Counted from the first letter of the stretch, positions 3,307 through 18,525 are shown. The stretch is DNA of 50,169 nucleotides from Chloroflexota bacterium (GCA_016210545.1 JACQTY010000166.1:1-50169); one strand, 5' to 3'. A program made the numbers and translations. The notes: generated by a model from the letters alone, not told the origin.

Positions 3307-4773
3307 GTGACAACCACCAAGGGACCCGCCAGGAGGACGTCCAGAGACGTCCTGCAGTTGGTGGAAAGCAAGAACCTGCGCATGGTGGACCTCAAGTTCA
3401 TCGACCTTCCCGGGACATGGCAGCATTTCTCCATCCCGGCGACGGAGTTGAGCGAGGACCTGTTCACGGAAGGCATCGGGTTCGACGGCTCCAGCATCCG
3501 CGGGTTCCAGAAGATACACGAGAGCGACATGCTCCTGTTCCCCGACCCGACAACGGCCATTGTAGACGTGGGCTGCGACATGCCCACACTGAGCCTGGTG
3601 TGCAATGTCAAGGACCCGATGACCGGCCAGCCGTACAGTCGCGACCCCAGGTATGTGGCCCAGAAGGCGGAAGCCTACCTCAAGTCTACGGGCCTCGCCG
3701 ACGTTAGCTACTGGGGGCCGGAGCTGGAGCACTTCATATTCAGCAGCATCTCCTTCGACCAGACCAGCCACAGCGGCTACTATTTCATAGACTCCGAAGA
3801 GGGTATCTGGAACTCCGGCGAACAGGGCAACAAGAACTCAACCAACGGCCATGACCGCAACCTGGGCTACAGGCCACGCCACAAGGAAGGCTACTTCCCC
3901 GTCCCACCCATCGACAAGCTACAGGACCTGCGCTCAGAGATTGCCCTCAAGATGATAGACTCGGGCATCAACATCGAGGTGCATCACCACGAGGTGGCCA
4001 CCGCCGGTCAGGTAGAGCTGGACATGCGCTATGATACGCTGACCAAGATGGCCGACAATGTCCTGCTATTCAAATACATAACAAAGAACATGTGCCTGAA
4101 AAAGGGGTACACGGCGACATTCATGCCTAAGCCGCTGTTCCAGGATAATGGCTCCGGTATGCACGTCCATCAGAGCCTGTGGAAGAATGGCGTGAACCTT
4201 TTCTACGACGCCAAGGGCTACGCCCAGATCAGCCAGTTAGCCAAACACTACATCGCGGGGTTGCTGGCTCACTCGCCGGCTCTTCTGGCCCTGGCCGCCC
4301 CAACCACCAACTCTTATCGCCGCCTGGTGCCGGGCTACGAGGCCCCCATCAACCTGGTGTACTCGCAGCGCAACCGGAGCGCCTGTGTGCGCATCCCCAT
4401 GTATTCCACCAATCCCAAGACCAAGCGCATCGAGTACCGTTGCCCGGACGCCACGTCCAACCCTTACCTGGCCCTCCCGGCGATGCTCATGGCCGGCCTC
4501 GATGGCATCAAGAGAAAACTGGACCCGGGCACGCCGATAGATAAGGATATCTACGAGTTGCCGCCCGAGGAGAAGGCCAAGATCAAGTCCACGCCCGGTT
4601 CCCTGGGCGAGGTGCTGGACGCCCTGGAGAAGGACCATGCCTTCCTGCTGGAGGGCGGGGTCTTCACGCCGGACCTTATCGAGACCTGGATTGAGTACAA
4701 AAGGAAGAACGAGATGCAGCAGGTGGCCCTGCGGCCGCACCCGTACGAGTTCTACCTTTACTACGACGCCTAG
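3307..4773 (+). CDS. glnA: Glutamine synthetase type I (beta class)
   Basis: FDGSSIRGF, HHHEVATAGQ, TFMPKP, NGSGMHVHQS, RNRSACVRIP, adenylylation-site-like DIYELPPEE; GAGGAGG RBS before GTG. Confidence 0.97.
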   Translation: MTTTKGPARRTSRDVLQLVESKNLRMVDLKFIDLPGTWQHFSIPATELSEDLFTEGIGFDGSSIRGFQKIHESDMLLFPDPTTAIVDVGCDMPTLSLVCNVKDPMTGQPYSRDPRYVAQKAEAYLKSTGLADVSYWGPELEHFIFSSISFDQTSHSGYYFIDSEEGIWNSGEQGNKNSTNGHDRNLGYRPRHKEGYFPVPPIDKLQDLRSEIALKMIDSGINIEVHHHEVATAGQVELDMRYDTLTKMADNVLLFKYITKNMCLKKGYTATFMPKPLFQDNGSGMHVHQSLWKNGVNLFYDAKGYAQISQLAKHYIAGLLAHSPALLALAAPTTNSYRRLVPGYEAPINLVYSQRNRSACVRIPMYSTNPKTKRIEYRCPDATSNPYLALPAMLMAGLDGIKRKLDPGTPIDKDIYELPPEEKAKIKSTPGSLGEVLDALEKDHAFLLEGGVFTPDLIETWIEYKRKNEMQQVALRPHPYEFYLYYDA

Positions 4774-4860: not shown

Positions 4861-5160
4861 CGGGCTTGGCGGCTGGAGTGGAGCATGCTTTTAGGCCACG
4901 GCGATCAACGCCAAAAGGCCAGACGCATCGCCATCCGTGTCTGCAGATACGGGCCGCCTTTCAAACTCAGAGTTTCAATTTGCACGCCGTTGCATGGGGC
5001 TAACCCAGCCATCTGAACGTGGAATGCACCCCGTAAGGGCGGGTTTGAACCTCCCCGACCACATTGCTCCGCTTGCGATAAGCGCCTGACCCCTGTATGA
5101 TAAACGCGGGGGGCAAAACCTCTTTCTGTGGGCAGTAAGAGCCACCCTGCTGGTGTACAC

Positions 5161-5688
5161 ATGGGCATTAGACGGTTTCTGAAGGGCAGCCACCGGCTCC
5201 GCCGGCTGCTCAGGGTCAAGACCAAGGGCCGGGCCTTCGCTGTCCTGGTCATAGTCGTCAGCATTGTCCTGGGGTACGTCTTCTTTCTCGCTAGCTGGCT
5301 TTCCGGGTTCTTCATAGCCAAGTGGCTATCTGGCCGAGACACGGGCAAACGGGGGATAGTGCCTTCCATCAAGCTGCCCCTGGGCCGCTACAGGCTCCAT
5401 CTGCACCACTGGTTCATATCATCGGTGTTAATGGCATGCACACTCATCGTGGGAGGCCTGGCCATCCCCGGGCAACTGTTCTACGGGATTGCCGCGGGAA
5501 TAACGTTCCAGGGGATCTACTCCTATAGAGACTGGCATACTATCATTGTACGACAGGTCAAGCGGACCGACGCCTCCATGCAGTCCATAACAAGCGGGCC
5601 GGGGCCGGGTCCAGCCCGCCACACGGACGTCTTCGCCGGGAACGCCCCCTCGCTCGTCGAAGGAGATAACGCTGACCATCCTGCATAA
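5161..5688 (+). CDS. Hypothetical membrane protein with HLHHW motif
   Basis: About 3 hydrophobic segments, HLHHWF and YSYRDW motifs; overlaps the start of the next gene. Confidence 0.65.
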   Translation: MGIRRFLKGSHRLRRLLRVKTKGRAFAVLVIVVSIVLGYVFFLASWLSGFFIAKWLSGRDTGKRGIVPSIKLPLGRYRLHLHHWFISSVLMACTLIVGGLAIPGQLFYGIAAGITFQGIYSYRDWHTIIVRQVKRTDASMQSITSGPGPGPARHTDVFAGNAPSLVEGDNADHPA

Positions 5689-6815: not shown

Positions 6816-7025
6816 ATGATCCAATTGCTATTCGCATTAGTCACGGTATTTGCCATCGGAATGCTGATAAGGTGGGGCGTCAGGAAGCGCAGGAAGCAGC
6901 ATTCAGCCGGCCCCGCTGCACCCCCAACCTCTACGGCTGCGCCACCGGCGTTCTGTCCCCAGTGCGGTCAGCCGGCCGGACCTGATTCCGAGTTTTGCGC
7001 CGGTTGCGGCTCCAAACTCAGATAA
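6816..7025 (+). CDS. Small membrane-anchored zinc-ribbon protein
   Basis: N-terminal TM helix, basic stretch, Pro/Ala linker, FCPQCG...FCAGCG; AGGAG RBS. Confidence 0.8.
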   Translation: MIQLLFALVTVFAIGMLIRWGVRKRRKQHSAGPAAPPTSTAAPPAFCPQCGQPAGPDSEFCAGCGSKLR

Positions 7026-7045
7026 TAATCCGAAGGAGCTGCCCG

Positions 7046-7624
7046 ATGTATTGTCCGAAATGCGGCGCATTAACTCAGGATGACTCACAATTCTGCCCTT
7101 CGTGCGGGGCCCCGGTTGCCCCACCCGCATGTCCCAATTGCGGACGTCCAATTAAGGCCGACGCGCGGTTTTGCGCCGGCTGCGGACAACAATTGACCGG
7201 CGGCCAGACGGCGCCGGGTCCGCGCCCCCCTTCTCCAGCGCCCGCAGGAATAGCCTCTGACCTGAAAGGGCTTGAGCCTGGAGAGGTTGTCCTGATGGAT
7301 ACCGGGTTTTTCCCGATAACCTATGTAAAGAACTTTGCCAGTTCAACCAACGGCAAGCTGTATCTCACCAACCGCCGGCTTGTTTTTAAGGCAGGTAAAC
7401 TCCAGGGGGTGGGCGGAGTGGCGGCGGGCGGCATCTTCGTCCCCAACCTGAAGGACGTCAACAAGTCGAAAGAGTTCTTTGCCATCGCCCTGTCTGACAT
7501 AACCGCGGTAGATACGGTATGGGCTGGTATAACCGTGAATGCGGCGGGACAGAAATATAAATTCGGCGGCATGCGCAAGACTAACGAATGGCAGGAAGCC
7601 ATCAGCAGGGCCATGAATAGTTAG
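7046..7624 (+). CDS. Double zinc-ribbon protein with C-terminal PH/GRAM-like domain
   Basis: Four CxxC motifs, then GKLYLTNRRLVF and IALSDITAV typical of PH/GRAM folds; AAGGAG RBS before ATG 7046. Confidence 0.8.
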   Translation: MYCPKCGALTQDDSQFCPSCGAPVAPPACPNCGRPIKADARFCAGCGQQLTGGQTAPGPRPPSPAPAGIASDLKGLEPGEVVLMDTGFFPITYVKNFASSTNGKLYLTNRRLVFKAGKLQGVGGVAAGGIFVPNLKDVNKSKEFFAIALSDITAVDTVWAGITVNAAGQKYKFGGMRKTNEWQEAISRAMNS

Positions 7625-7677
7625 TATTTCCAGAAACCCTTTGATATAATATGTAAAGTTGTTTGGAGAGGATGCGC

Positions 7678-10074
7678 ATGGATAAGTCACACGGCCGCGA
7701 GATAACGCGGGCCACGCAAGCGATGTTGGCCGTTGCCTTCGCGTTGGTCATGGTGGTATCCTTTTTTTTACCCGCAGGACACGCTCTGGCTGACCAGCCA
7801 GTTTCGGTTGCCAACGACCTTGGGGCGCGGGGTACCGTGCTTATTACTTCCCTGGCTGACGGGCAGACCTGGCCTGCAACTGGAATGAAGATCCCGGTAA
7901 ACGTCTTCTATACGATTGATGGTTACGGAACGCACGGCTCTGGTGAGTATTGGGAGGTCTCAGTTATCGGCAATCTTGGGGACAGTCCCCTATGGTCGGA
8001 TAAGAAGCGGGTTAGCGGCAGCCAGGGTGAGGTTTCTTTTACTATAGACCTGTCCAGATACGGCTCCGAAATAGCCCCTGGCCAGTTTACAGTTAAAGCG
8101 AACCTGTATGCCAACTTTGGCGGCGCAGGCTCATTCCCCAGAACAGTCGCGATGCACAGGATATCGCTCAATATCGTTTCTGGCTCTAAGCCGTCATCAG
8201 GCGGCGCTATCCCGGGAAAGCCGCCGGGGGGATTACCAGGCGGCGCCAACCCGGTGACGCGGCCGCCGCCAAATTCCGGTAATTCGGACTCTGATGGCGC
8301 CAGCCCCATCGTCCCCATCGCCGTCGCAGCGGGTGGGGCCGCGGCCGCCGGGCTTGTCGTCAAGAAAATAATCGATAGGGTGAGGAAGCCAAAGAAACGG
8401 AATAAGCTCCGCTCTAAGGAAGACGAAATTCAAGTTGCCGGGAGTACTGAAGAAGCCGAAGGAAGGCAGAAAACACAACGAATTCAAGATGCTGCCCGGA
8501 AAATTGATGAGGCCGACAGGAGGCAGGAAACAATTGAAGCCTTGCGCAGCACTGACAAGGGGGCGCTCAAGGACCGGGAACAGCTCGACCGGCTGAATAA
8601 GATCAGGAATGCCGTCGCCGATGATATCAGGCTGAGCGAATTTGTGAACGACGCCCATAAGAGCATTGTGGATGGCCACGGCCATGTGGATAAAGAAAAG
8701 CTGGACAAGCTCGAAGGCTTGCTGAAACGGTGGATAGTCAGGGACAAGTTAAAAGTTCATATGCCCGACTACACCACATCCGATGCTTTCTACGATACCG
8801 TCCGGCAGGGTTCCGGGAACATCGTCATAAGAGGGGGCGCCGCCTATCTCAGCGCCGGCTACTCCGAGATGGCGCTGAATCCCATCTCCGCTCTCTCGAC
8901 GATGAGACAGGGAATCATGGATGGCAAATCCAGTCTGAGAGCGGTGGCCGAGGGTTTTGCCCAGTCCTCCTTCGAACTGGCGCTGGGCGAAAGCGGCCGC
9001 CTGTTCAAATACGCCGAGCCTTACCTCGAAAAGATAAGGGAAAGCCGCAATCTCGCCAAACTGGCCGATGCCAGCCCGGACCTGGCTTCCGAAGTGTCCA
9101 CCATCAACCAGTTGGCCAGACAGTCTGACGACCTGGGGAAGTACAGCCGGGACGCCTTCATTAAAAGAACGGATGTGGTACAGTTGGGCAAGACTGCCCC
9201 GGCCAGGCTGGATGACCTGGAGAGGGCGGCCTTGAACCTTAATAACAATCCGGAATTCAGGCAACTGCTTTCCAAGAACCCGGACCTGGTCCCGGGCAGG
9301 GTCAAGGACATCATGGGTTCGGCCAGGCAGAAAGCCTATCAGCAGGCCAGAGACAATGCCATCGGCGATGTCATTAACCAGATGAGCAAAGATGGCGTCC
9401 CGGTAGGCGACAACCCATTTTTTATCAATCAGACCGGCACTCATGCCCGCCCCGGGAACCCCGGCTGGAATCCCGTGAAGAGCGATTTCGACCACACGGT
9501 CAACTTCGGCGAGAAGTACAACAAGTTGTACGAGCAGCGATTGAATACCCATCTGGAAAGCCAGGGGACCTCGGCGTCGGCGCTTGATGTCAACGTGTAC
9601 GGTCCGGGTACCAGCGCACGGGGATCGTATACCGGCGGCGCCACCAAGATCGTCGAGAACTATAACCAGACGACGGGAAGCGATGTTATGATCCGAATCA
9701 GGGACGGCGTACCCACCATCAGCCGGGAAACGCCGCAGACATCCACCTCGCTGCTCTCCACCGTGAAACCGGCAGATTTGCCCAGCGCCAGGTCCAATCT
9801 CCAGAGCTTCTTCGGGAAGAGCCTGGATAAGGGCGGCTCGGTGGAAAACATGTTACAGAATTCCTCCAAGGAGGTCTCGCGCATGAGTGCGCTGGACCGT
9901 GTAGCGTACTTCCAAAAGACGGGGAGAACGGATTACGTGGCGCCTGAAGCCGTCCAGGTGGCCCACATGGTCAAGAACTGGGGGCTGTCCGTTGATGACG
10001 CCATTCATGAGGCGGGGTACAGCGGCAGCAAGATGCAGCTTCTCAGTGATTATAAGAAGTATATGGGGTTGTAA
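7678..10074 (+). CDS. Large single-pass membrane protein: signal peptide, beta-rich ectodomain, TM, helical region, putative nucleotidyltransferase-like C-terminal domain
   Basis: 800-codon ORF with GGAGAGG RBS; signal peptide ending ALA-D; Pro/Gly linker; TM IVPIAVAAGGAAAAGLVV-KK; QTGT..SDFDH..DVNVY. Confidence 0.7.
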   Translation: MDKSHGREITRATQAMLAVAFALVMVVSFFLPAGHALADQPVSVANDLGARGTVLITSLADGQTWPATGMKIPVNVFYTIDGYGTHGSGEYWEVSVIGNLGDSPLWSDKKRVSGSQGEVSFTIDLSRYGSEIAPGQFTVKANLYANFGGAGSFPRTVAMHRISLNIVSGSKPSSGGAIPGKPPGGLPGGANPVTRPPPNSGNSDSDGASPIVPIAVAAGGAAAAGLVVKKIIDRVRKPKKRNKLRSKEDEIQVAGSTEEAEGRQKTQRIQDAARKIDEADRRQETIEALRSTDKGALKDREQLDRLNKIRNAVADDIRLSEFVNDAHKSIVDGHGHVDKEKLDKLEGLLKRWIVRDKLKVHMPDYTTSDAFYDTVRQGSGNIVIRGGAAYLSAGYSEMALNPISALSTMRQGIMDGKSSLRAVAEGFAQSSFELALGESGRLFKYAEPYLEKIRESRNLAKLADASPDLASEVSTINQLARQSDDLGKYSRDAFIKRTDVVQLGKTAPARLDDLERAALNLNNNPEFRQLLSKNPDLVPGRVKDIMGSARQKAYQQARDNAIGDVINQMSKDGVPVGDNPFFINQTGTHARPGNPGWNPVKSDFDHTVNFGEKYNKLYEQRLNTHLESQGTSASALDVNVYGPGTSARGSYTGGATKIVENYNQTTGSDVMIRIRDGVPTISRETPQTSTSLLSTVKPADLPSARSNLQSFFGKSLDKGGSVENMLQNSSKEVSRMSALDRVAYFQKTGRTDYVAPEAVQVAHMVKNWGLSVDDAIHEAGYSGSKMQLLSDYKKYMGL

Positions 10075-10075
10075 T

Positions 10076-11269
10076 ATGGAAAATTCGCGCCCCCCCGGGG
10101 TCACCGCGGCGGCCATCTCCGATGGCGAGCTATCCGCGCTGTTGAGCTTGTCCGGAATAACGCCGGAGAAGGCGTCGCCGCTGGCGCAAATCAGCAGCCA
10201 GCCCGCAGCGCCCGATGCGGTCCGCAAGTTGCAACAATCCGGCCTCATGGACGCCGGCAGCCGGCCTACCCCGGGATGTCAGGAGTGTCTCAGGATCCTG
10301 GCCAGCCCGGGCGTTGAGATGGACCTGGTCTGGGGTAATGCGGAAGGCGTTAGCCTCAGCAAGGTATATGCCGCCGGTGAGAACAGCAAATTGGTCTCTT
10401 TCACCAGGATTGACGGCAGCAATCACCTGTCTTATTTCCTGTCTCCGCAGGACATCACCGACCTGATTGTGGAGAAGACGGCGGGGCCTTCAATTCGGGA
10501 AGCTGTAGACCTTTCGATAGAGACCAGTGTAGAGGCCATGCCGGTCTTCTTTGCCTTGCTTGACTCATGCCGGGAGTCACAGCTCAGAACGGCCCTGGAG
10601 CGGAGGCGGGAAGCCGAAGTGACGGTAACCGCCGATGACGCAAATCGCATTACGCAAACGGCCAAAGTGGAGCTCGACATGAGCTGGTACGCTCCGGTTG
10701 CCTACGTGGCGGTACCAATGGACACGCCGATAACTGGGAACAGCATCGCTGAAGGTATAAAAACCCTGAACCGGGAAGGAATTATTGGCGCAAACGGCGT
10801 CTTGAATGCGCGCCTGGTTTCCTTTGCCCGGGCCGCTTTCCCATTGGTTTCATTTGTGGGCGTAAGGGTAGTAAGAAGAAGCTCCGCCTCCCTTGAGAAG
10901 ACACAGTTGGCTCTCTTCCGGGGCTTCTCGACACTGCTGCTGGTACAGATGTCTTCGGACGGCGCTGCGAAACAGGTCCTCATAAACTCGATATCTACTT
11001 CGCAATTGCCGGAGCTGCTTTTTAGCCTGGCTACACGCCCGTTTGAAGTTGAGGCTCTGAAGCCCGCTCCACAGACGCAAGCGGCAACATCGGGGCCCGG
11101 CCTTGTGTGCGCCAAGTGTGGCGCCCCGAGCCCGGGTGGCGCAGGGTTCTGCGTAAAGTGCGGAGCGCCGCTTCCGCTGCCATCAACTGCCAATTTCTGC
11201 CGCAAGTGCGGCCGTCCGGTGACAACCGGGGCGAAGTTCTGCAATAAATGCGGCGCCCGGTTAGATTAG
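10076..11269 (+). CDS. Hypothetical protein with C-terminal double zinc ribbon; N-terminal region EspG-like
   Basis: Starts 1 nt after the previous stop; four C-terminal CxxCG motifs; N-terminal LQQSGLMD..LRILASP pattern. Confidence 0.75.
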   Translation: MENSRPPGVTAAAISDGELSALLSLSGITPEKASPLAQISSQPAAPDAVRKLQQSGLMDAGSRPTPGCQECLRILASPGVEMDLVWGNAEGVSLSKVYAAGENSKLVSFTRIDGSNHLSYFLSPQDITDLIVEKTAGPSIREAVDLSIETSVEAMPVFFALLDSCRESQLRTALERRREAEVTVTADDANRITQTAKVELDMSWYAPVAYVAVPMDTPITGNSIAEGIKTLNREGIIGANGVLNARLVSFARAAFPLVSFVGVRVVRRSSASLEKTQLALFRGFSTLLLVQMSSDGAAKQVLINSISTSQLPELLFSLATRPFEVEALKPAPQTQAATSGPGLVCAKCGAPSPGGAGFCVKCGAPLPLPSTANFCRKCGRPVTTGAKFCNKCGARLD

Positions 11270-11883
11270 ACTTCGCGGAGGCTCTGGTAAGTGGCGTGTG
11301 ATTTCCGGACCACCGGCACGAATTCCCAACCGTTGTCTTCAACCGCTTGCTTGATCGGGTCACGGACATAGCCGACATCAAACTTGTATTCGTAAATCTT
11401 GCCCGGCTTCAGATTCTCCTTCAGGCCGTACTGCACCCCCCAGGACTTCTGGAAAAGGATCCTGCCCCGGAAGAACTGACGCTGATAGGCTAGCGTCGGC
11501 GTCGGATGCCCGTCAGTGCCGGCCAACCATTGCACCGTGACTAGCTCCTCACAATAGCGGGCGGCCCGGCGTGACTCATCCAGAACGATGAAAGCGCGGT
11601 AGATCTTGCTCAGGCGTTCCCTGGCGAATACGGCAAACCACTTTGCGTCGACAATCTTCCATTCCACCAGCAGATCCGTCTCGCTCGTTGGCTTTATTTC
11701 ATACGGCAGCTCGGGCGAGTTCAGGCCAAGCAGCCGCTGTTTCAGGCTATCCTTACCTGTAAAGATGTCGGTCTTGCTCTTCCTCCCCCCAAGGTACTCT
11801 CCAATACCCAGAGCAAGGAACATGGCCCACACGCCAATTACGGCGCCGAGCACTCCAGCAGCCGCGCCAATCAGAACGAGCAT
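11266..11883 (-). CDS. Hypothetical membrane-anchored protein
   Basis: GGGGAGG RBS, N-terminal TM helix, C-terminal PIKQAVEDNGWEF; converges on the zinc-ribbon cluster. Confidence 0.75.
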   Translation of the reverse strand: MLVLIGAAAGVLGAVIGVWAMFLALGIGEYLGGRKSKTDIFTGKDSLKQRLLGLNSPELPYEIKPTSETDLLVEWKIVDAKWFAVFARERLSKIYRAFIVLDESRRAARYCEELVTVQWLAGTDGHPTPTLAYQRQFFRGRILFQKSWGVQYGLKENLKPGKIYEYKFDVGYVRDPIKQAVEDNGWEFVPVVRKSHATYQSLREV

Positions 11884-12179
11884 TACGGCCTCCCCACCAT
11901 AGGCATGGACTTGTACCACTTTCGTGCGCCAGCAGCGCCGCAAATCCGGCCGGGTGCACAGTATCGAGTGGCGCAACCCACAAAAGCCTCCTCACATTCT
12001 GTCAAAGACCATCATCGGGATTTACGTAAAGGGGGGTCCATGGGGTTCCCTTCGCAGCACATCTCCACGAGCGAGCAACGCCGGCGGGACTGACAAGTCA
12101 CAAACTTTCGTCCCCTACGCCGATCAAGCGCCCCCCGATACATCGCGGCGAGTTCCCCAGGAGCTTGGTTCTCAATGTT

Positions 12180-15230: not shown

Positions 15231-16183
15231 GCCACGAAAGAACACAAAGAACGCAGAGGTAATATCCTCAAATAGGAGCGGTCACGTTCTCTGCGCACCT
15301 TGCGTTCCCTGGCGGCTCATGACATATTTCTTGATTTCGAACTTGTAGCTTCCAAAGTTTATCAACAGCCCATCCTCAATCCGTGCCGATCGCAGGTAGC
15401 CCAGGATTTGCGCCGTGTGCTCGTCGGCCAGCGCACGGCACGCCTTCAACTCCACGATCAAGCACGCCTCCACGATGAGATCGGCGAAAAACTCGCCGAT
15501 TAATGTGCTGTCCTCGTCGTAGACTGTGAGCGGCTGTTGCTGCGTCACCTCGATGCCGGCCTTCCGCAGCCGGTGGGCCAGTGCATTCTCGTACACCTTC
15601 TCCATGTGCCCATGCCCATGATAAACATGGATAGCGTACGCTATGTCCCGCACCAGGTCGCAGAGTTCGTTAATCGTCTTCATCGCTGGTAGCGGGTGCT
15701 CCATCGCGGCCTATCAAGTATCTCCTGATATGGATTTGGCCGCCAAAGAGCACAAAGAAGGCAGAGTAACTGACCTTTCAATCCGCTCGGCGCAAACTTA
15801 GCCTGTATTCTCAATTCATCCCTCTCCATAGTTTCCGGTATTCGCGCCCGGATAACCCACCTCTGCTGTCCCAGAAGTCTAGCCGAAAACCCCTTTTTGA
15901 CGTGATTTAGGCTCCAAAATCGTATCCGCGACGGGGCGAAATTTCGGCCATTTTGGACTTTTCGGCTGCGTCTCTAGTCTCTCTATCGTGCTCTTTGCGT
16001 TCTCTCGCGGCTAAATAGAATCGGCTACCAAACACCACAAAGAACATGATAACGCACTTCTTAATCAGCGCGGGCTAAACCCACCCGGTACTCTCCGTTC
16101 CTTACCTTCTATGGGGCCCCACATTCGCCCCCACATACCCCCACCCCTCCTCATCTATCGTGCTCTTTGCGTTCTCTCGCGGC
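15231..16183. repeat. 9-nt-periodic repeats flanking GxxExxY, including a 30-bp exact direct repeat
   Basis: GCCACGAAAGAACACAAAGAACGCAGAG (15231), an inverse copy at 15289-15316, another at 15739-15766; TCTATCGTGCTCTTTGCGTTCTCTCGCGGC at 15982 and 16154. Confidence 0.8.
15282..15704 (-). CDS. GxxExxY protein (PD-(D/E)xK-like)
   Basis: GHMEKVYE, FADLIVE, IVELKA, AQILGYL, GLLINFG; alternative start at 15683. Confidence 0.92.
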   Translation of the reverse strand: MEHPLPAMKTINELCDLVRDIAYAIHVYHGHGHMEKVYENALAHRLRKAGIEVTQQQPLTVYDEDSTLIGEFFADLIVEACLIVELKACRALADEHTAQILGYLRSARIEDGLLINFGSYKFEIKKYVMSRQGTQGAQRT

Positions 16184-17497
16184 CCGCACCGCCGCGTGGG
16201 AGACCACTGTAGCCAGCCTCCCGTACTCTCCGGCCAACCTCTCGGCCACGCTGGCCCAGCTCAGTCCCGCCACGCGGGAACGCGCCGACCGAGAAAGTCG
16301 CTGTTGCAGGCCCTCGTCTTCGAGGAAGCGGCCCAGCGTATCGGCAAGACCGCGGGGCGACAGGTCATCGGTGAGCAGGCCCGCCCCTCCGTCCTGGACC
16401 AAAGTGGGCATGACTCCTACAGGCGCCGCCACCACCGGCAGTCCGCAGGCCATGGCCTCCAGGGCCACCAGCCCGAAGGTCTCGTAGCGGGAGGGCAGCA
16501 CCATGACATCGGCGGAGGAGTAGTAGAGGGGCAGCTCATCCTGGTCGATGGCCCGGTGGAAGCGGACCATTGACTCGATGCCCAGGCTGTGGCTCAGGCC
16601 ATACAGCTCGGTCAGTTCCTCCGGCTCCGAGTCATCGCCGCCCACTATCATGAGATGGACCGGCCTCTGCTCCGATACGATGGCCGTGGCTTCCAGAAGC
16701 TGGTGGACACCTTTTTCACCCCCCAGACGTCCCACGTAGAGCACCACCGGCAGCCCATTCAGGCCCACAGCCCGCCGCGCCCACGCCTTTGGCAACGGAC
16801 GGAACGTCTCCAGGTCTACGCCGCAGGGGATTACTGCGGTCTTCGAAGGCTCGACACCATACAGTTCGGCGAGGTCCTGTTTCTCGGCGTCGGTGGAGGC
16901 CACGACCAGATCGGCTAAGGACAAGACCTGCTGCTCCGTGACAGCCCGCAGACCCGGCTCCGCCGTGTAGCCCAGGCGCCGCTCCTTGCCGCGGGCCGAG
17001 GTGTGGAGCATGGTCACGTGCGGGACCTGCCACTGTTCAGCCAGCGCCATTCCCACCCACCCGGATAGCCAGTAATGGCTGTGAACAATGTCGTAACCGA
17101 TGCCCTCAGCGTCGCGGAAGCGGTCTACCGCCTCGGCAAACTCCGGCAGGTAAGGGAACATATCCGTTTTACTCGGATTGCCGCCCAGCGGCAGGTGGAT
17201 AAGCCGGGCGCGCTCCCCCAACCCCACTACATCAGCCGACCCCGGCTGGTGCCGGCGAGTGAAAACGTCCACGGCAATGCCCAACTGCCCCAGATCGCGC
17301 GCCACGTTCTGCACGTAGATGCTCATGCCCCCCGTATCGCGCGTCCCTGGCCTGCCCAGAGGGCAGCTATGGACGCTGAGCATGGCTACTCTCAAAGCGC
17401 CGCGCTGACCGCTCTCAGCCTGTCTAAGGGAAGTCCCGACAGGTCGGGATTCGACAGGTTCAGCGCGGCGAGTAACTGCCCTGCGTTGTTCCTTCAT
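16151..17497 (-). CDS. mshA: GT4 glycosyltransferase, MshA-like (D-inositol-3-phosphate glycosyltransferase family)
   Basis: MLSVHSCPLGRPGTRDTGGMSIYV, HSHYWLSG, PSRYETFGLVALEAMACG; ATGA overlap with the GNAT gene. Confidence 0.8.
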   Translation of the reverse strand: MKEQRRAVTRRAEPVESRPVGTSLRQAESGQRGALRVAMLSVHSCPLGRPGTRDTGGMSIYVQNVARDLGQLGIAVDVFTRRHQPGSADVVGLGERARLIHLPLGGNPSKTDMFPYLPEFAEAVDRFRDAEGIGYDIVHSHYWLSGWVGMALAEQWQVPHVTMLHTSARGKERRLGYTAEPGLRAVTEQQVLSLADLVVASTDAEKQDLAELYGVEPSKTAVIPCGVDLETFRPLPKAWARRAVGLNGLPVVLYVGRLGGEKGVHQLLEATAIVSEQRPVHLMIVGGDDSEPEELTELYGLSHSLGIESMVRFHRAIDQDELPLYYSSADVMVLPSRYETFGLVALEAMACGLPVVAAPVGVMPTLVQDGGAGLLTDDLSPRGLADTLGRFLEDEGLQQRLSRSARSRVAGLSWASVAERLAGEYGRLATVVSHAAVRAARERKEHDR

Positions 17498-18525
17498 TGC
17501 CGCACAACCTCCGGGACACTGGACTTGCCCGGCTGGGTCACGATCGTGCAGCGGTACACCGGCGTGGGCTTGCCGCCCAGGTGCGCCTTGTAGTCTTCAG
17601 CCCCCCGCAGGAAGTCGTACGCCCTTTCCCCCTCGGATATGGCCGTCTGGATGGACAGGACCTTGCACAGCAGGCCAACGCTGAGCCCCTGGTAGGCGGG
17701 CTCAAAACCGCTGTTATACAGATACAGGGTACCGTTGAAATTGAAACAGAAGGCGGCAGCCACGCGCCTGCCATCCAGCTCCATGAAATACAGCCGCAGC
17801 CAGCCGCGCTCGCCCGTCGCCTGGTACAACTGGCGGAAGAAGGCTTCCCTTCGGGGGGTGAGAAACTCATCCTTGGATGCCCGGCTGATACGGAAGAGAC
17901 GAAGGAAATCCTCTAAGTCCTCAGAAAGGGAATGACTGGCATAGAAACGTACCTGTCCGGCCCGCTCCAGCCGGCGCAGCTTCCGCTTCAACTCGTGGCG
18001 GTCCTTGCCGTGGAGGCTCTCCAGGTACTCATCCCAGGAAGAGGGCAGGGGCATGCCGTAGGAGACATCAAGGGGTTCGGTATGGGTGACACAGCCAAGC
18101 TCTCTGGCCAGTGGGACGACATTCAGCGATGCTGTGGAATCTGGAAGCAGGGGATGAAGGTCAAGGGAGCAGCCTCCGTTACTGGCAAACCGAATTAAGG
18201 CGCCGGCGACGATGTCTCCCGCGCCGACCGCAGCGATGATGTCCAGGTAATCGCAGACCTCTTTGTCGCCCAGCAATCGTAGGGTGTCGCCTTGGCGCAC
18301 CAGAGGGACAATGCCCACCACGGCGCCGCCATGCCTCACCGACAGCAGGTGAAGCTCCCCGGCGCCGAGGTTCTGCCACCACGAGCGGCCCCAGCAAGGA
18401 GTGAAGAAGATATGCCGCGCCGGGCTGCTGGCCAGGACCCGATGCCAGTCGGCCTCCAGGGAATCGAAGTCGTCGAGGTGGTCTTGTATCGTTGCTGTAG
18501 ATGGAAGAACGGTCAATGTCTCCAA
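17494..18525 (-). CDS. GNAT family N-acetyltransferase (CelD/BcsL-like)
   Basis: W..F.TP.W...WW, CDYLD, LKRKLRRL, YLYNSGF, YDFLRGAEDYK. Confidence 0.88.
   Translation of the reverse strand: METLTVLPSTATIQDHLDDFDSLEADWHRVLASSPARHIFFTPCWGRSWWQNLGAGELHLLSVRHGGAVVGIVPLVRQGDTLRLLGDKEVCDYLDIIAAVGAGDIVAGALIRFASNGGCSLDLHPLLPDSTASLNVVPLARELGCVTHTEPLDVSYGMPLPSSWDEYLESLHGKDRHELKRKLRRLERAGQVRFYASHSLSEDLEDFLRLFRISRASKDEFLTPRREAFFRQLYQATGERGWLRLYFMELDGRRVAAAFCFNFNGTLYLYNSGFEPAYQGLSVGLLCKVLSIQTAISEGERAYDFLRGAEDYKAHLGGKPTPVYRCTIVTQPGKSSVPEVVRQ

Follow-up and report, generated by a model that had tools for sequence, protein, structure and literature searches.

A conserved gene cluster of groundwater Dehalococcoidia centred on a membrane protein with an exchangeable ectodomain and a putative nucleotidyltransferase domain

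The window analysed here, a stretch of 50,169 nucleotides from a Chloroflexota bacterium, contains five adjoining open reading frames, called A to E in the following, of which four lie on the plus strand and E is convergent on the minus strand. The preliminary description of this DNA had reported co-directional zinc-ribbon genes (A, B and D) around a gene for a protein of ~800 aa (C), followed by a convergent gene for a membrane protein (E); we recovered all five reading frames at the coordinates given there beforehand, and the zinc ribbons with them. The genes are:

6816–7025, plus strand: gene A, 69 aa; a transmembrane helix and one zinc ribbon
7046–7624, plus strand: gene B, 192 aa; soluble, with a double zinc ribbon and a weak GRAM/PH match
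7678–10074, plus strand: gene C, 798 aa; predicted type-I membrane protein, the core of the module
10076–11269, plus strand: gene D, 397 aa; soluble, with a weakly EspG-like domain and a double zinc ribbon
11266–11883, minus strand: gene E, 205 aa; an N-terminal transmembrane helix, no known family

As had been stated before, profile searches against Pfam and NCBIfam place none of the cluster genes in a housekeeping family. That the cluster goes beyond a chance neighbourhood follows from the fact that the same genes adjoin each other in nine other loci (L002–L005 and L010–L014, compared with the window as ten loci in all). In 10/10 loci (9/9 of the related ones) gene D is the next gene after the last copy of C, starting in the window 1 nt past the stop codon of C, and B was likewise found in all ten (9/9 related loci), although in L013 it is cut by the contig end. 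C, D and B thus occur together in every locus compared, and this synteny bears out the earlier proposal of a membrane-associated module, which is real and conserved. Full-length A is present in seven of the ten loci (6/9 related loci), with only a 19-aa remnant of it kept in L010, and E in six (5/9 related loci), being absent from three complete-looking ones (L002, L005 and L014); the five parts are therefore not all obligatory. The gene order is shuffled between loci, the two arrangements being B-A-C-D and C-D-B-E/A, and the flanking genes differ from locus to locus. Two loci, L002 and L003, contain two copies of C each and L005 contains three, with A, B and D remaining single in each of them.

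The hosts of the cluster are uncultured groundwater Dehalococcoidia (Chloroflexota), and the distribution of its core is very narrow. Among 401 sampled genomes of the phylum, the conserved part of C was found only in the window's own genome, and the same holds for D in the same sample; to date, neither of the families of C and D has been found without the other. A search of 5.8 billion proteins returned 15 other homologues of C, and one of 1.84 billion representatives returned 41 matches at E≤0.001; D has 40 homologues of the full-length type besides the window's own record. The family of E is far wider, with 205 proteins at E≤0.001, and its conserved domain also forms the C-terminal end of many ~410-aa membrane proteins in other Chloroflexota. 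In the window, E (205 aa when read from its homologue-supported start) consists of a single N-terminal transmembrane helix, recognized by hydropathy, and this ~165-aa cytoplasmic domain, for which profile searches found no family; its gene overlaps the convergent D by 4 nt.

Protein A begins with a transmembrane helix (aa 1–23, by hydropathy), continues through a basic stretch and a Pro-rich linker, and ends in a zinc ribbon (PF13240, 26.2 bits against a cut-off of 25) that is predicted to be cytoplasmic. Protein B comprises a double zinc ribbon at aa 1–50 (PF12773 with 48.5 bits and PF13240 with 56 bits, both over the cut-offs), a Pro-rich linker and a GRAM/PH-like domain at aa ~75–190. The GRAM family (PF02893) scored 18.3 bits (E=2e-3) on B, under its cut-off of 23.6, and recurs at E≤0.1 in eight of the nine members of the B family (best value 2e-4), two of the nine also matching the PH-like family Vps36 GLUE. 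The ribbons of D exceed their cut-offs as well (48.1 and 38.3 bits; PF13240/PF12773). The Cys columns of the ribbons are invariant or nearly so, and those of the three proteins match one another at 40–55% identity, which would be compatible with the suggested role as shared interaction tags but does not demonstrate it.

Protein C matches no family in Pfam, NCBIfam, PADLOC or PHROGs. The window's own record of it (P0006) has 798 aa; an alternative start, TTG at 7663, would extend it to 803 aa, and residue numbers are counted here from that codon. Its parts, as delimited by hydropathy, alignment and structural models, are the following:

7747–8696, plus strand: replaced block, aa 29–345; no detectable nucleotide similarity to L010
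7798–8193, plus strand: ectodomain, aa 46–177; Ig/CBM-like beta sandwich in the full-length model
8299–8373, plus strand: predicted transmembrane helix, aa 213–237 (hydropathy), with a Lys/Arg-rich stretch after it
8620–9027, plus strand: conserved helical 'GGxSE' module, aa 320–455 (alignment)
9028–10071, plus strand: nucleotidyltransferase-like domain with a HEPN/KNTase_C-like helical bundle, aa 456–803 (model)
9436–9588, plus strand: candidate catalytic motif, G592-T593, 14 residues, D608-F-D610, 31 residues, D642

The protein thus runs from a Sec-type signal peptide (hydrophobic aa 14–44, by hydropathy) through the Ig/CBM-like ectodomain, predicted to be exposed at the surface, the transmembrane helix and a long coiled-coil helix (aa 267–317), which precedes the GGxSE module, to a conserved cytoplasmic region. 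According to the positive-inside rule, a basic stretch beside a transmembrane helix marks the cytoplasmic side, and since the helix of C is followed by such a Lys/Arg-rich stretch, the C-terminal ~540 aa, including the enzyme-like C-terminus, are predicted to be cytoplasmic. The GGxSE module is 57–85% identical among homologues and is modelled with low confidence, the pLDDT of the conserved aa 359–452, which lead from the coiled coil to the enzyme-like domain, being below 50. The module (profile positions ~275–432) recurs in long membrane proteins bearing other C-termini, and an hhalign comparison with P0045 gave a probability of 97.4%.

The ectodomain of the window's C shows structural similarity to carbohydrate-binding modules and to Ig domains of the S-layer: in a structure comparison with VIA it matches 8wae_B with Z 11.1 (rmsd 3.2, 104 aligned residues), 7ptp is matched with Z 8.7 (rmsd 3.0, 96 aligned) and Foldseek retrieves 8wae_A with E=9.5e-4. 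The identity of this part to its counterparts in the 15 homologues, one of which has no ectodomain, amounts to 13–27%, against 49–95% for the enzyme-like domain, and seven of the 23 members of the C family, some paralogues included, carry PEGA and CarboxypepD_reg ectodomains and three of the 23 a TcaA_3rd_4th-like one. A blastn comparison of the window with L010 finds matches only at 6969–7746 (86.9%) and 8697–11912 (90.3%); the DNA common to the two loci, 87–90% identical, is confined to 6969–11912, gene E lying inside this block, and the flanks beyond are unrelated. What separates the two matches is the replaced block, which spans the ectodomain, the stalk, the transmembrane helix and the coiled coil. 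In close relatives, the hypervariable ectodomain of C has been swapped en bloc.

From a model of the last 349 aa of C (aa 455–803; pLDDT 87.8, pTM 0.81) we infer that this part is a GlnE/ANT-type nucleotidyltransferase of the Pol-beta superfamily joined to a HEPN-like helical domain. Its best matches in VIA are GlnE 3k7d_B (Z 7.1, rmsd 6.2, 280 aligned), AadA 6fzb_A (Z 6.8, rmsd 5.4, 188 aligned), ANT(3'')(9) 7uy4_A (Z 6.6, rmsd 5.3, 191 aligned) and GlnE 1v4a (Z 6.5, rmsd 6.5, 272 aligned), the last also being the best Foldseek match (E=0.021, probability 0.91); both this E-value and the best Z of 7.1 lie in a middling range, where unrelated models also fall. Nine of the top 11 rows of a second-look alignment are GlnE, AadA, ANT(3'')(9) or AAD(9) (Z 5.9–7.1, rmsd 5.1–6.5, 180–280 residues aligned), and the list is completed by a HEPN toxin (7ae8_C, Z 6.3) and a further AAD(9) entry (6xz0). 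A search of 48,161 chains independent of Foldseek again ranked GlnE first (Z 7.1) and laid the helical bundles of HEPN, MNT, Csm6 and Las1 proteins on model aa 247–349. The AadA match covers the whole ANT chain (residues 6–252 on model residues 98–349), a nucleotidyltransferase core followed by a helical bundle, while DrrA and the MNT protein of MNT-HEPN pairs are more distant relatives in structure. GlnE, ANT-type enzymes, DrrA and MNT all transfer AMP to a hydroxyl group.

The Pol-beta nucleotidyltransferase signature consists of hG[GS]-x9-13-Dh[DE]h and a third carboxylate on a neighbouring strand. It can be recognized in C (F-F-I-N-Q-T-G592-T593 ... S-D608-F-D610-H-T-V ... D642-V-N-V-Y), where the spacer between G-T and DxD is one residue beyond the usual range, and the resulting order of residues, G-[ST]...DxD...D, is common to C and the GlnE/ANT enzymes. 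G592, T593, D608, D610 and D642 are invariant in 16/16 aligned sequences, so the putative enzyme is predicted to be probably active. Three distant relatives, P0035, P0045 and P0049, retain the pattern TGTxA[KR]P...[ST]DFD; hhalign supports their homology (97.4% probability), and in P0045 D642 is replaced by K. The proposal of a nucleotidyltransferase effector at this locus therefore finds support in the predicted fold and the motif, but not in any sequence family: Pfam nucleotidyltransferase models match 0/23 members of the C family even at E≤10, the NCBIfam search of C gave no nucleotidyltransferase family, a PDB profile search with C returned only colicin E1 (E=6.8) and no nucleotidyltransferase, and a protein-atlas feature search gave no usable match.

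In D, an N-terminal domain of ~335 aa is followed by the double zinc ribbon with its four CxxC pairs. The EspG family (PF14011) matches aa 47–100 of D with 24.2–24.9 bits, under the cut-off of 27, and the match covers 55 of the 245 profile positions (39–93). A sub-threshold match to PF14011 (E≤0.1, best E=1.8e-6) recurs in all nine members of the D family and is the sole recurring family; nine of 41 D homologues carry a precomputed annotation of it. An hhalign comparison of the nine N-terminal domains with five EspG-family proteins of Chloroflexota gave a probability of 6.6% (E=0.0055, 178 collinear columns), the reference alignment being thin and very divergent, with three of the five proteins over the PF14011 cut-off. 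PDB profile searches with D did not find EspG, and feature matches in the protein atlas reached clusters with EspG, YfjC or DUF5081 members at 0.82–0.83, which are leads only. D can thus be called weakly EspG-like, as the consistency of the Pfam matches suggests, but profile–profile comparison does little to strengthen the earlier designation. Complex prediction on pairs of the proteins, which had been proposed as a check, was run for C and D and gave a score of 0.42, against 0.01 for the best of three controls, a result graded as weak support. Of 80 solved complexes, 58 attain the required mark, as do two of 110 mismatched pairs; only seven of those 80 attain it at 0.60 or under, and both mismatches do so. 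A pass of this grade is more often wrong than right unless the prior is strong. At least 14% of the contacts recur between the runs, with a partner pLDDT of at least 75.

Taken together, these features suggest an undescribed membrane signalling or conflict module. The overall reading that we favour, tentatively and at somewhat short of an even chance, is that of a receptor-like, membrane-associated nucleotidyltransferase complex. Proteins A to E would assemble into a single complex at the membrane's cytoplasmic side, with the single-pass, receptor-like C as its core. C would attach a nucleotide monophosphate, AMP being the likeliest, to a hydroxyl group, either on a small molecule or on one of its partner proteins, among which B, D and E are candidate targets. 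The activity of C would be set by a ligand bound outside by the ectodomain and acting through the transmembrane helix and the coiled coil. D may act as a chaperone, adaptor or regulator by binding C on its cytoplasmic side, and the zinc ribbons of B, D and the membrane-anchored A may tie the parts together at the membrane. Where two or three C paralogues are present, different ectodomains would feed one common set of A, B and D.

The same features can be accommodated by other readings. A conflict system, serving phage defence (abortive infection) or competition between bacteria, is in our view unlikely. In it the variable ectodomain, driven by an arms race, would act at the surface as sensor or decoy, with the nucleotidyltransferase as an effector that modifies a host or invader target or makes a nucleotide signal, and with D, B, A and E as regulators or immunity factors. 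The block-wise swapping of the ectodomain, the tandem C paralogues (one of which is frameshifted in L005), the patchy distribution and the unrelated flanks of two close relatives would suit such a system, as would the ParE toxin gene inserted beside the L010 cluster; a nucleotidyltransferase combined with HEPN recurs in MNT-HEPN toxin–antitoxin pairs, which are among the structural matches of C (8xeh_E, Z 6.0, rmsd 3.3, 102 aligned; 7ae2_A, Z 6.1, rmsd 3.6, 94 aligned), and a report on Bacillus subtilis describes an EspG-like protein, YfjC, working with a toxin whose antitoxin is YfjD (10.1101/2023.08.02.551746). However, no PADLOC-DB 2.0 model matched the cluster (best E=0.0084, the JetC coiled coil on C, then 0.04 and 0.091), the PHROGs matches were confined to zinc-ribbon families and, on C, a single weak one to a tape-measure family (E=0.0023), no relatives were found on viral contigs, and the genes flanking the cluster in the window and L010 are of housekeeping or sensor type, neither an integrase nor further defence genes being seen among them. 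Nor is the Rx4-6H motif of HEPN proteins visible among the invariant residues of the HEPN-like bundle in our alignment.

Improbable, in our estimate, is a cell-envelope module in which C would be a membrane-anchored surface protein (S-layer-associated or glycan-binding) with a cytoplasmic docking scaffold, possibly a pseudo-enzyme, and A, B, D and E would position it, assemble it or couple it to the cell interior. The invariant putative catalytic residues argue for an active enzyme, presence in one of 401 genomes is far too rare for a general envelope function and the flanks are not conserved between loci, even if the carbohydrate-binding and S-layer likeness of the ectodomain, the PEGA and CarboxypepD_reg variants, the E domain at the end of other membrane proteins, the GRAM/PH-like fold of B (a fold that is often membrane-binding) and the genes for a glycosyltransferase, a FemAB-like GNAT and a PIG-L deacetylase in the window flanks would all fit. 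The preliminary description had also envisaged a toxin–chaperone/immunity module and pointed to variable C-termini as the pattern of a polymorphic toxin; comparison of loci and homologues revealed the reverse, a variable N-terminus and a conserved C-terminus, different C-termini following the GGxSE module only at the superfamily level. As the two ends of C are reversed relative to that prediction and the C-terminus is predicted to be cytoplasmic, the polymorphic-toxin reading is not supported. Delivery of C, or of its C-terminal domain, by D as an EspG chaperone for type VII-like export is accordingly very improbable: the recurrent sub-threshold EspG matches and atlas leads of D would agree with it, but C has its own signal peptide, and WXG100 proteins were detected in 0/5 cluster-bearing genomes (the completeness of four is unstated) by a search that was positive in the controls B. 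subtilis and C. glutamicum. In the same five genomes no multi-domain EccC/EssC was seen, FtsK/SpoIIIE domains occurring only singly, in 731–813-aa frames, in four of the five.

Returning to the receptor-like nucleotidyltransferase complex, a bolder version of it, which as a whole we consider doubtful, is that C founds a new class of transmembrane receptors with a GlnE/ANT-like nucleotidyltransferase output, a 'receptor AMPylase'. Its ectodomain cassettes would sense different outside signals, every C copy would write the same nucleotide mark on the zinc-ribbon partners D, B and A, in a signalling chemistry parallel to that of receptor kinases, and the GGxSE superfamily would be a general chassis joining surface sensing to varied cytoplasmic effectors. 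If true, this would be a new route of transmembrane information, with an extracellular sensor wired straight to an enzyme that nucleotidylates proteins or metabolites. The adaptors dedicated to it would combine zinc ribbons with domains of EspG-like and PH-like type. The Pol-beta nucleotidyltransferase superfamily would gain a branch anchored in the membrane, and three unannotated families (D, E and the cytoplasmic region of C) a first clue to their function; an EspG-like protein would be seen at work without type VII secretion, and the replacement of the ectodomain block between near-identical clusters would represent clean natural sensor swapping on a fixed signalling chassis.

Several known systems invite comparison. 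The GlnE/ANT enzymes are soluble, whereas C is predicted to be membrane-anchored, its enzyme-like domain coming after a signal peptide, variable ectodomain, transmembrane helix, coiled coil and GGxSE module, and its identity to them is only 8–13% (Z≤7.1), with no Pfam or PDB sequence match. Mycobacterial EspG proteins, the chaperones of PE-PPE proteins, share with D the weak but consistent PF14011 likeness and a gene position beside a protein with long helical regions, contact with which is weakly predicted for D; D is, however, ~60 aa longer, fused to zinc ribbons and without a type VII context. In the yfjA operon of B. subtilis, EspG-like YfjC is encoded beside the paralogous membrane antitoxins YfjD and YfjE, which have a signal sequence, a transmembrane helix and a large cytosolic part (10.1101/2023.08.02.551746). 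The likeness to our cluster is one of layout, an EspG-like gene adjoining genes for proteins of this build, and the atlas features of D touch clusters with YfjC_N/YfjC_C members (0.83, a lead only). That operon also encodes a WXG100 protein together with a glycine-zipper toxin and requires type VII secretion, none of which was found for the present cluster, and we saw no mention of a counterpart in YfjC of the double zinc ribbon of D. PASTA-domain Ser/Thr kinases have the same layout as C, a variable ligand-binding ectodomain, one transmembrane helix and a cytoplasmic protein-modifying enzyme, but the output of C would be a nucleotidyltransferase, and the resemblance is an analogy, not homology. 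TcaA-type proteins (Pfam DZR, Zn_Ribbon_1), which NCBIfam describes and which combine a ribbon and an ectodomain within one protein, have the same short ribbon families as A, B and D and the type of ectodomain noted above in three members of the C family; in the present cluster, three different proteins accompanying membrane protein C carry the ribbons.

Five genes in the window, here called A to E, make up the cluster at 6816-11883. The open reading frames and domain matches were found again, and the preliminary description of the genes (four co-directional ones, three with zinc ribbons, arranged around a protein of some 800 aa and followed by a convergent membrane protein) proved to be correct:

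6816-7025, forward strand: gene A, 69 aa; a hydrophobic helix (aa 1-23), then basic residues, a linker rich in Pro and a single zinc ribbon
7046-7624, forward strand: gene B, 192 aa; a double zinc ribbon above the Pfam cut-offs
7663 or 7678-10074, forward strand: gene C, 803 or 798 aa
10076-11269, forward strand: gene D, 397 aa; a C-terminal double zinc ribbon; start one base past the stop codon of C
11266-11883, reverse strand: gene E, 205 aa from the homologue-supported start; one transmembrane helix; convergent with D, with an overlap of 4 nt

The ribbon of A belongs to PF13240 (26.2 bits against a cut-off of 25), the GRAM match of B is sub-threshold (18.3 bits against 23.6), and so is a match of D (aa 47-100) to EspG (24.2 bits against 27). 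Gene C has no family match in Pfam, NCBIfam, PADLOC or PHROGs, PADLOC matched none of the cluster proteins, and no family was found for E, for which a PDB profile search had no hit better than E=0.36. A scan for promoters and terminators returned no more sites than in shuffled sequence. The database record of D (P0060, 340 aa) begins at 10247 instead of 10076, 57 residues after the homologue-supported start; S34, P35 and L36, which do not vary in the alignment of nine D N-terminal domains (A4), make a start at the ATG at 10076 likelier. No description of the cluster was found in a literature search that covered few of the subscription journals, nor did this search find work on EspG-like proteins in Chloroflexi, on EspG in Dehalococcoidia, or joining EspG, zinc ribbon and nucleotidyltransferase; for a double zinc ribbon with GRAM it returned unrelated mammalian work only. 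The gene cluster is real, conserved, rare and undescribed.

A search of 185,579 species genomes with a profile of C detected four loci, all labelled as Chloroflexota/Dehalococcoidia metagenome-assembled genomes, and five further loci in metagenome contigs; the five window proteins were placed on these nine related loci by tblastn. The co-occurrence of the cluster genes in other genomes, which had been set beforehand as a test, was borne out: D lies immediately downstream of the last C copy and B is present in all nine loci (in L013 truncated by the contig end). Full-length A occurs in six of the nine, the contigs of L011 and L013 being too short to judge, and E in five, with none found in L002, L005 and L014 and L013 again too short. 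Two kinds of gene order are seen, B-A-C(n)-D and, with E and A further on, C(n)-D-B, and the flanks are unrelated from locus to locus. The closest cluster, L010, shares 87-90% DNA identity with the window, confined to 6969-11912, a stretch that begins at the end of A and stops shortly beyond the start of E, the sole other match in the 50-kb window being a piece of 94 nt. These limits mark out the five genes, E included, as one unit. In L010, A is reduced to a 19-aa ribbon remnant (L010:7290-7346), and the position of A holds a gene for a ParE-type toxin (PF05016, E=2.9e-12) with a small upstream reading frame lacking a Pfam match (L010:6683-7214).

The C family is small, with 15 other proteins at E<=0.001 among 5.8 billion; a search of 1.84 billion representatives returned 41 at E<=0.001, 13 of them at E<=1e-30. 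Among 401 sampled genomes of the phylum, that of the window alone contained the conserved part of C, two others giving weak matches confined to the non-conserved N-terminal part of the profile; D was likewise restricted to the window's own genome, and E-like domains occurred in nine. C was absent from all 60 relatives of the window genome searched, and no relative of it was found in the viral contigs scanned. D has 40 homologues of the full-length type, not counting the window's own record. DNA of the window was found in groundwater metagenome runs of three studies, one of them its possible source, and no RNA dataset was among the sequencing runs containing it.

C is variable in its outer part. 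Two of its segments are hydrophobic in the hydropathy profile (aa 14-44 and 213-237), the second followed by a stretch rich in Lys and Arg, from which the positive-inside rule predicts a signal peptide, an extracellular domain, a single transmembrane helix and a cytoplasmic part of about 540 aa. The parts, as they appear in a full-length model with a mean pLDDT of 64, are:

aa 46-177: beta sandwich, nearest to carbohydrate-binding modules and Ig-like domains
aa 178-215: stalk rich in Pro, Gly and Ser
aa 267-317: single long helix
aa ~320-455: GGYSEMALNP motif and its surroundings, strongly conserved (the GGxSE module); pLDDT below 50 at aa 359-452
aa 456-803: last, enzyme-like domain

The best-matched structure for the sandwich is 8wae_B (Z 11.1, rmsd 3.2, 104 residues aligned; Foldseek E=9.5e-4). 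In comparison with the window protein, the ectodomains of 15 homologues (14 have one) are 13-27% identical, their GGxSE modules 57-85% and their enzyme-like domains 49-95%. In L010, whose B, D and E proteins are 89%, 88% and 78% identical to those of the window, no DNA similarity to the window is detectable at 7747-8696, with both sides of this block 87-90% identical, and the replaced block codes for aa 29-345 of C, that is, the ectodomain, stalk, transmembrane helix and coiled coil. PEGA and CarboxypepD_reg ectodomains are found instead in seven of 23 C-family members, and ectodomain families were the only matches in a lax Pfam scan of these 23.

C is also the gene that is multiplied, with two paralogues each in L002 and L003 and three in L005, whereas A, B and D are single genes in each of these loci. 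The two copies in L003 fall into different groups in a tree of the C-terminal domain, and are therefore not recent duplicates, in a topology with few supported branches (two of 11 inner branches starred, seven drawn open). The middle copy of the tandem in L005 (L005:9689-11841; tblastn pieces 9701-11323 and 11326-11841) is frameshifted, either through decay of the gene or through an error in the assembly; its row in the tree spans the frameshift and is unreliable. Several other membrane proteins of 700-1600 aa (P0038, P0039, P0043, P0050 and P0051 among them) have only the GGxSE module in common with C and end in other, unannotated C-termini, P0039 opening with a zinc ribbon of its own. Membrane proteins with this module may form a wider uncharacterised superfamily.

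As a structure search with full-length C returned ectodomain matches only, its C-terminal 349 residues (aa 455-803) were folded alone (23-row alignment; pLDDT 87.8, pTM 0.81). Foldseek against the PDB gave nothing at E<=0.001; the best row was the N-domain of GlnE (1v4a, E=0.021, probability 0.91), and further top rows were also nucleotidyltransferases (AadA, the GlnE C-domain 3k7d, DncV, DrrA, AAD(9) and CdnE). An independent structure search of 48,161 chains, in which Z values below 8 can be due to chance, placed GlnE 3k7d_B first (Z 7.1, rmsd 6.2, 280 residues aligned), with 1v4a (Z 6.5, rmsd 6.5, 272), AAD(9) (Z 6.2, rmsd 5.1, 183), ANT(3'')(9) (Z 6.2, rmsd 5.1, 187) and an MNT antitoxin (Z 6.0, rmsd 3.3, 102) also matched. 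Model residues 247-349 matched many HEPN-type bundles (HEPN toxins, Csm6, Las1). When 11 top rows were aligned in a second look, ten were GlnE, AadA, ANT or AAD(9) and one was a HEPN toxin. Given such Z values, we place the weight on the coherence of the hits, on ANT chains being covered over their whole length and on a sequence motif. The latter reads F-F-I-N-Q-T-G592-T593, 14 residues, S-D608-F-D610-H-T-V, 31 residues and D642-V-N-V-Y, with G592, T593, D608, D610 and D642 invariant in all 16 C sequences; its residues follow the order of the Pol-beta nucleotidyltransferase signature, the spacer of C exceeding the usual 9-13 by one residue. Distant relatives (P0035, P0045 and P0049) retain TGTGA[KR]P...TDFD, and hhalign aligned P0045 with C across the GGxSE module and the motif (probability 97.4%), the position of D642 being Lys in this protein. 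The putative nucleotidyltransferase of the preliminary description is supported by the predicted GlnE/ANT-type fold and the invariant motif, but not by sequence models, since none of the 23 C members matched any nucleotidyltransferase model even at E<=10. A PDB profile search with C returned colicin E1 alone (E=6.8), and the protein atlas gave no usable match for the domain. Altogether, aa 456-803 of C probably adopt a GlnE/ANT-like nucleotidyltransferase fold, GlnE and the aminoglycoside adenylyltransferases being the closest enzymes on fold and motif only, and the core of the cluster is best described as a putative new, membrane-tethered form of Pol-beta nucleotidyltransferase whose partners are novel.

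Among these partners, D shows one recurring family, EspG (PF14011), detected at E<=0.1 in all nine members (best 1.8e-6), each time under the cut-off and over 55 of 245 profile positions; it is precomputed on nine of 41 D homologues. The best atlas features of D are unnamed clusters (0.94 and 0.92), clusters with EspG, YfjC or DUF5081 members following at 0.82-0.83 as leads only. A PDB profile search with whole D returned zinc-ribbon proteins only and no EspG, and hhalign of D against five Chloroflexota PF14011 proteins, three of them above the cut-off, gave a probability of 6.6%, with an alignment collinear from the N-terminus. SafD, matched by the N-terminal domain of D in a PDB profile search without EspG (E=0.0076), was judged a chance hit. 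PF14011 proteins above the cut-off were seen in three of the 401 sampled genomes (G190, G163 and G305; loci L041-L043). When C (aa 262-803) and D (aa 1-335) were modelled as a complex, the prediction reached 'weak support' at a score of 0.42 against 0.01 for the best control, a mark attained by 58 of 80 solved complexes and two of 110 mismatched pairs, scores of 0.60 or less comprising only seven of those 80 complexes plus both mismatched pairs; the runs share at least 14% of contacts and the partner pLDDT is at least 75. In the B family GRAM is matched by eight of nine members at E<=0.1 (best 2e-4) and Vps36-GLUE by two of nine. E belongs to a wide family: 205 proteins reach E<=0.001, and some of them are assigned to other phyla by their sources. 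Elsewhere in Chloroflexota its domain stands alone or is C-terminal in membrane proteins of about 410 aa; in one genus it ends membrane proteins of about 400-440 aa present in 5-7 copies per genome (G309, G333, G371). These proteins (L021, L022, L028 and others) carry an uncharacterised N-terminal outside domain, and two copies are adjacent in L022. No A, B, C or D lies within 1.5 kb of such copies, and E is thus a facultative part.

We tentatively propose that the cluster encodes a receptor-like nucleotidyltransferase complex. The ectodomain of C would bind something extracellular, perhaps a glycan in view of its CBM/Ig/PEGA character, and the transmembrane helix and coiled coil would pass the signal inward, whereupon the GlnE/ANT-like domain would move a nucleotide monophosphate onto a hydroxyl group, either in a partner protein or in a small molecule. 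D may dock onto the cytoplasmic part of C at the membrane, and the zinc ribbons of A, B and D may bring the components together there. The topology, conservation pattern, synteny and co-distribution in this proposal are observed, whereas the enzyme activity, its substrate, the ligand and the role of the ribbons are inferred. A hypervariable surface part, a patchy distribution, differing genomic sites and an MNT-HEPN-like architecture would also suit a conflict system, but no defence hallmark supports it, and we consider this rather unlikely. An envelope scaffold with a pseudo-enzyme seems to us more doubtful still.

The toxin-chaperone reading of the preliminary description, in its type VII-like form, is contradicted by the evidence and highly improbable. 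WXG100 proteins were found in none of the five cluster-bearing genomes (that of the window has a stated completeness of 93.8%, the only one stated) by a search positive in the controls Bacillus subtilis and Corynebacterium glutamicum, and FtsK/SpoIIIE domains, present in four of the five, are single only, in frames of 731-813 aa, so that nothing here points to a type VII system. The nearest operon logic described is that of the B. subtilis yfjA operon, in which the EspG-like YfjC is encoded beside YfjD/YfjE, proteins that combine a signal sequence and a transmembrane helix with a large cytosolic part (10.1101/2023.08.02.551746). The likeness of C to YfjD/YfjE is one of description, and the WXG100 protein, glycine-zipper toxin and type VII dependence reported for the yfjA operon (10.1101/2023.08.02.551746) were not found for the cluster.

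The cluster is flanked in the window by genes for a CCA/poly(A) polymerase, a trypsin-like protease, glnA, an MBL hydrolase, a PIG-L deacetylase, a thioredoxin, a cupin, a glycosyltransferase, a GNAT protein and mutL. A tie between the GlnE-like fold of C and glnA (3307-4773, 2 kb upstream) was considered and rejected, and their proximity is taken as a coincidence, because the other loci are flanked differently. Between glnA and the MBL-fold hydrolase gene lies a reading frame of 186 aa with hydrophobic stretches and no Pfam match (5128-5688). Further downstream, the GT4 glycosyltransferase at 16151-17497 also matches the Pfam family 'GT4-conflict' (E=1.5e-18) and adjoins the FemAB-like GNAT gene at 17494-18525.
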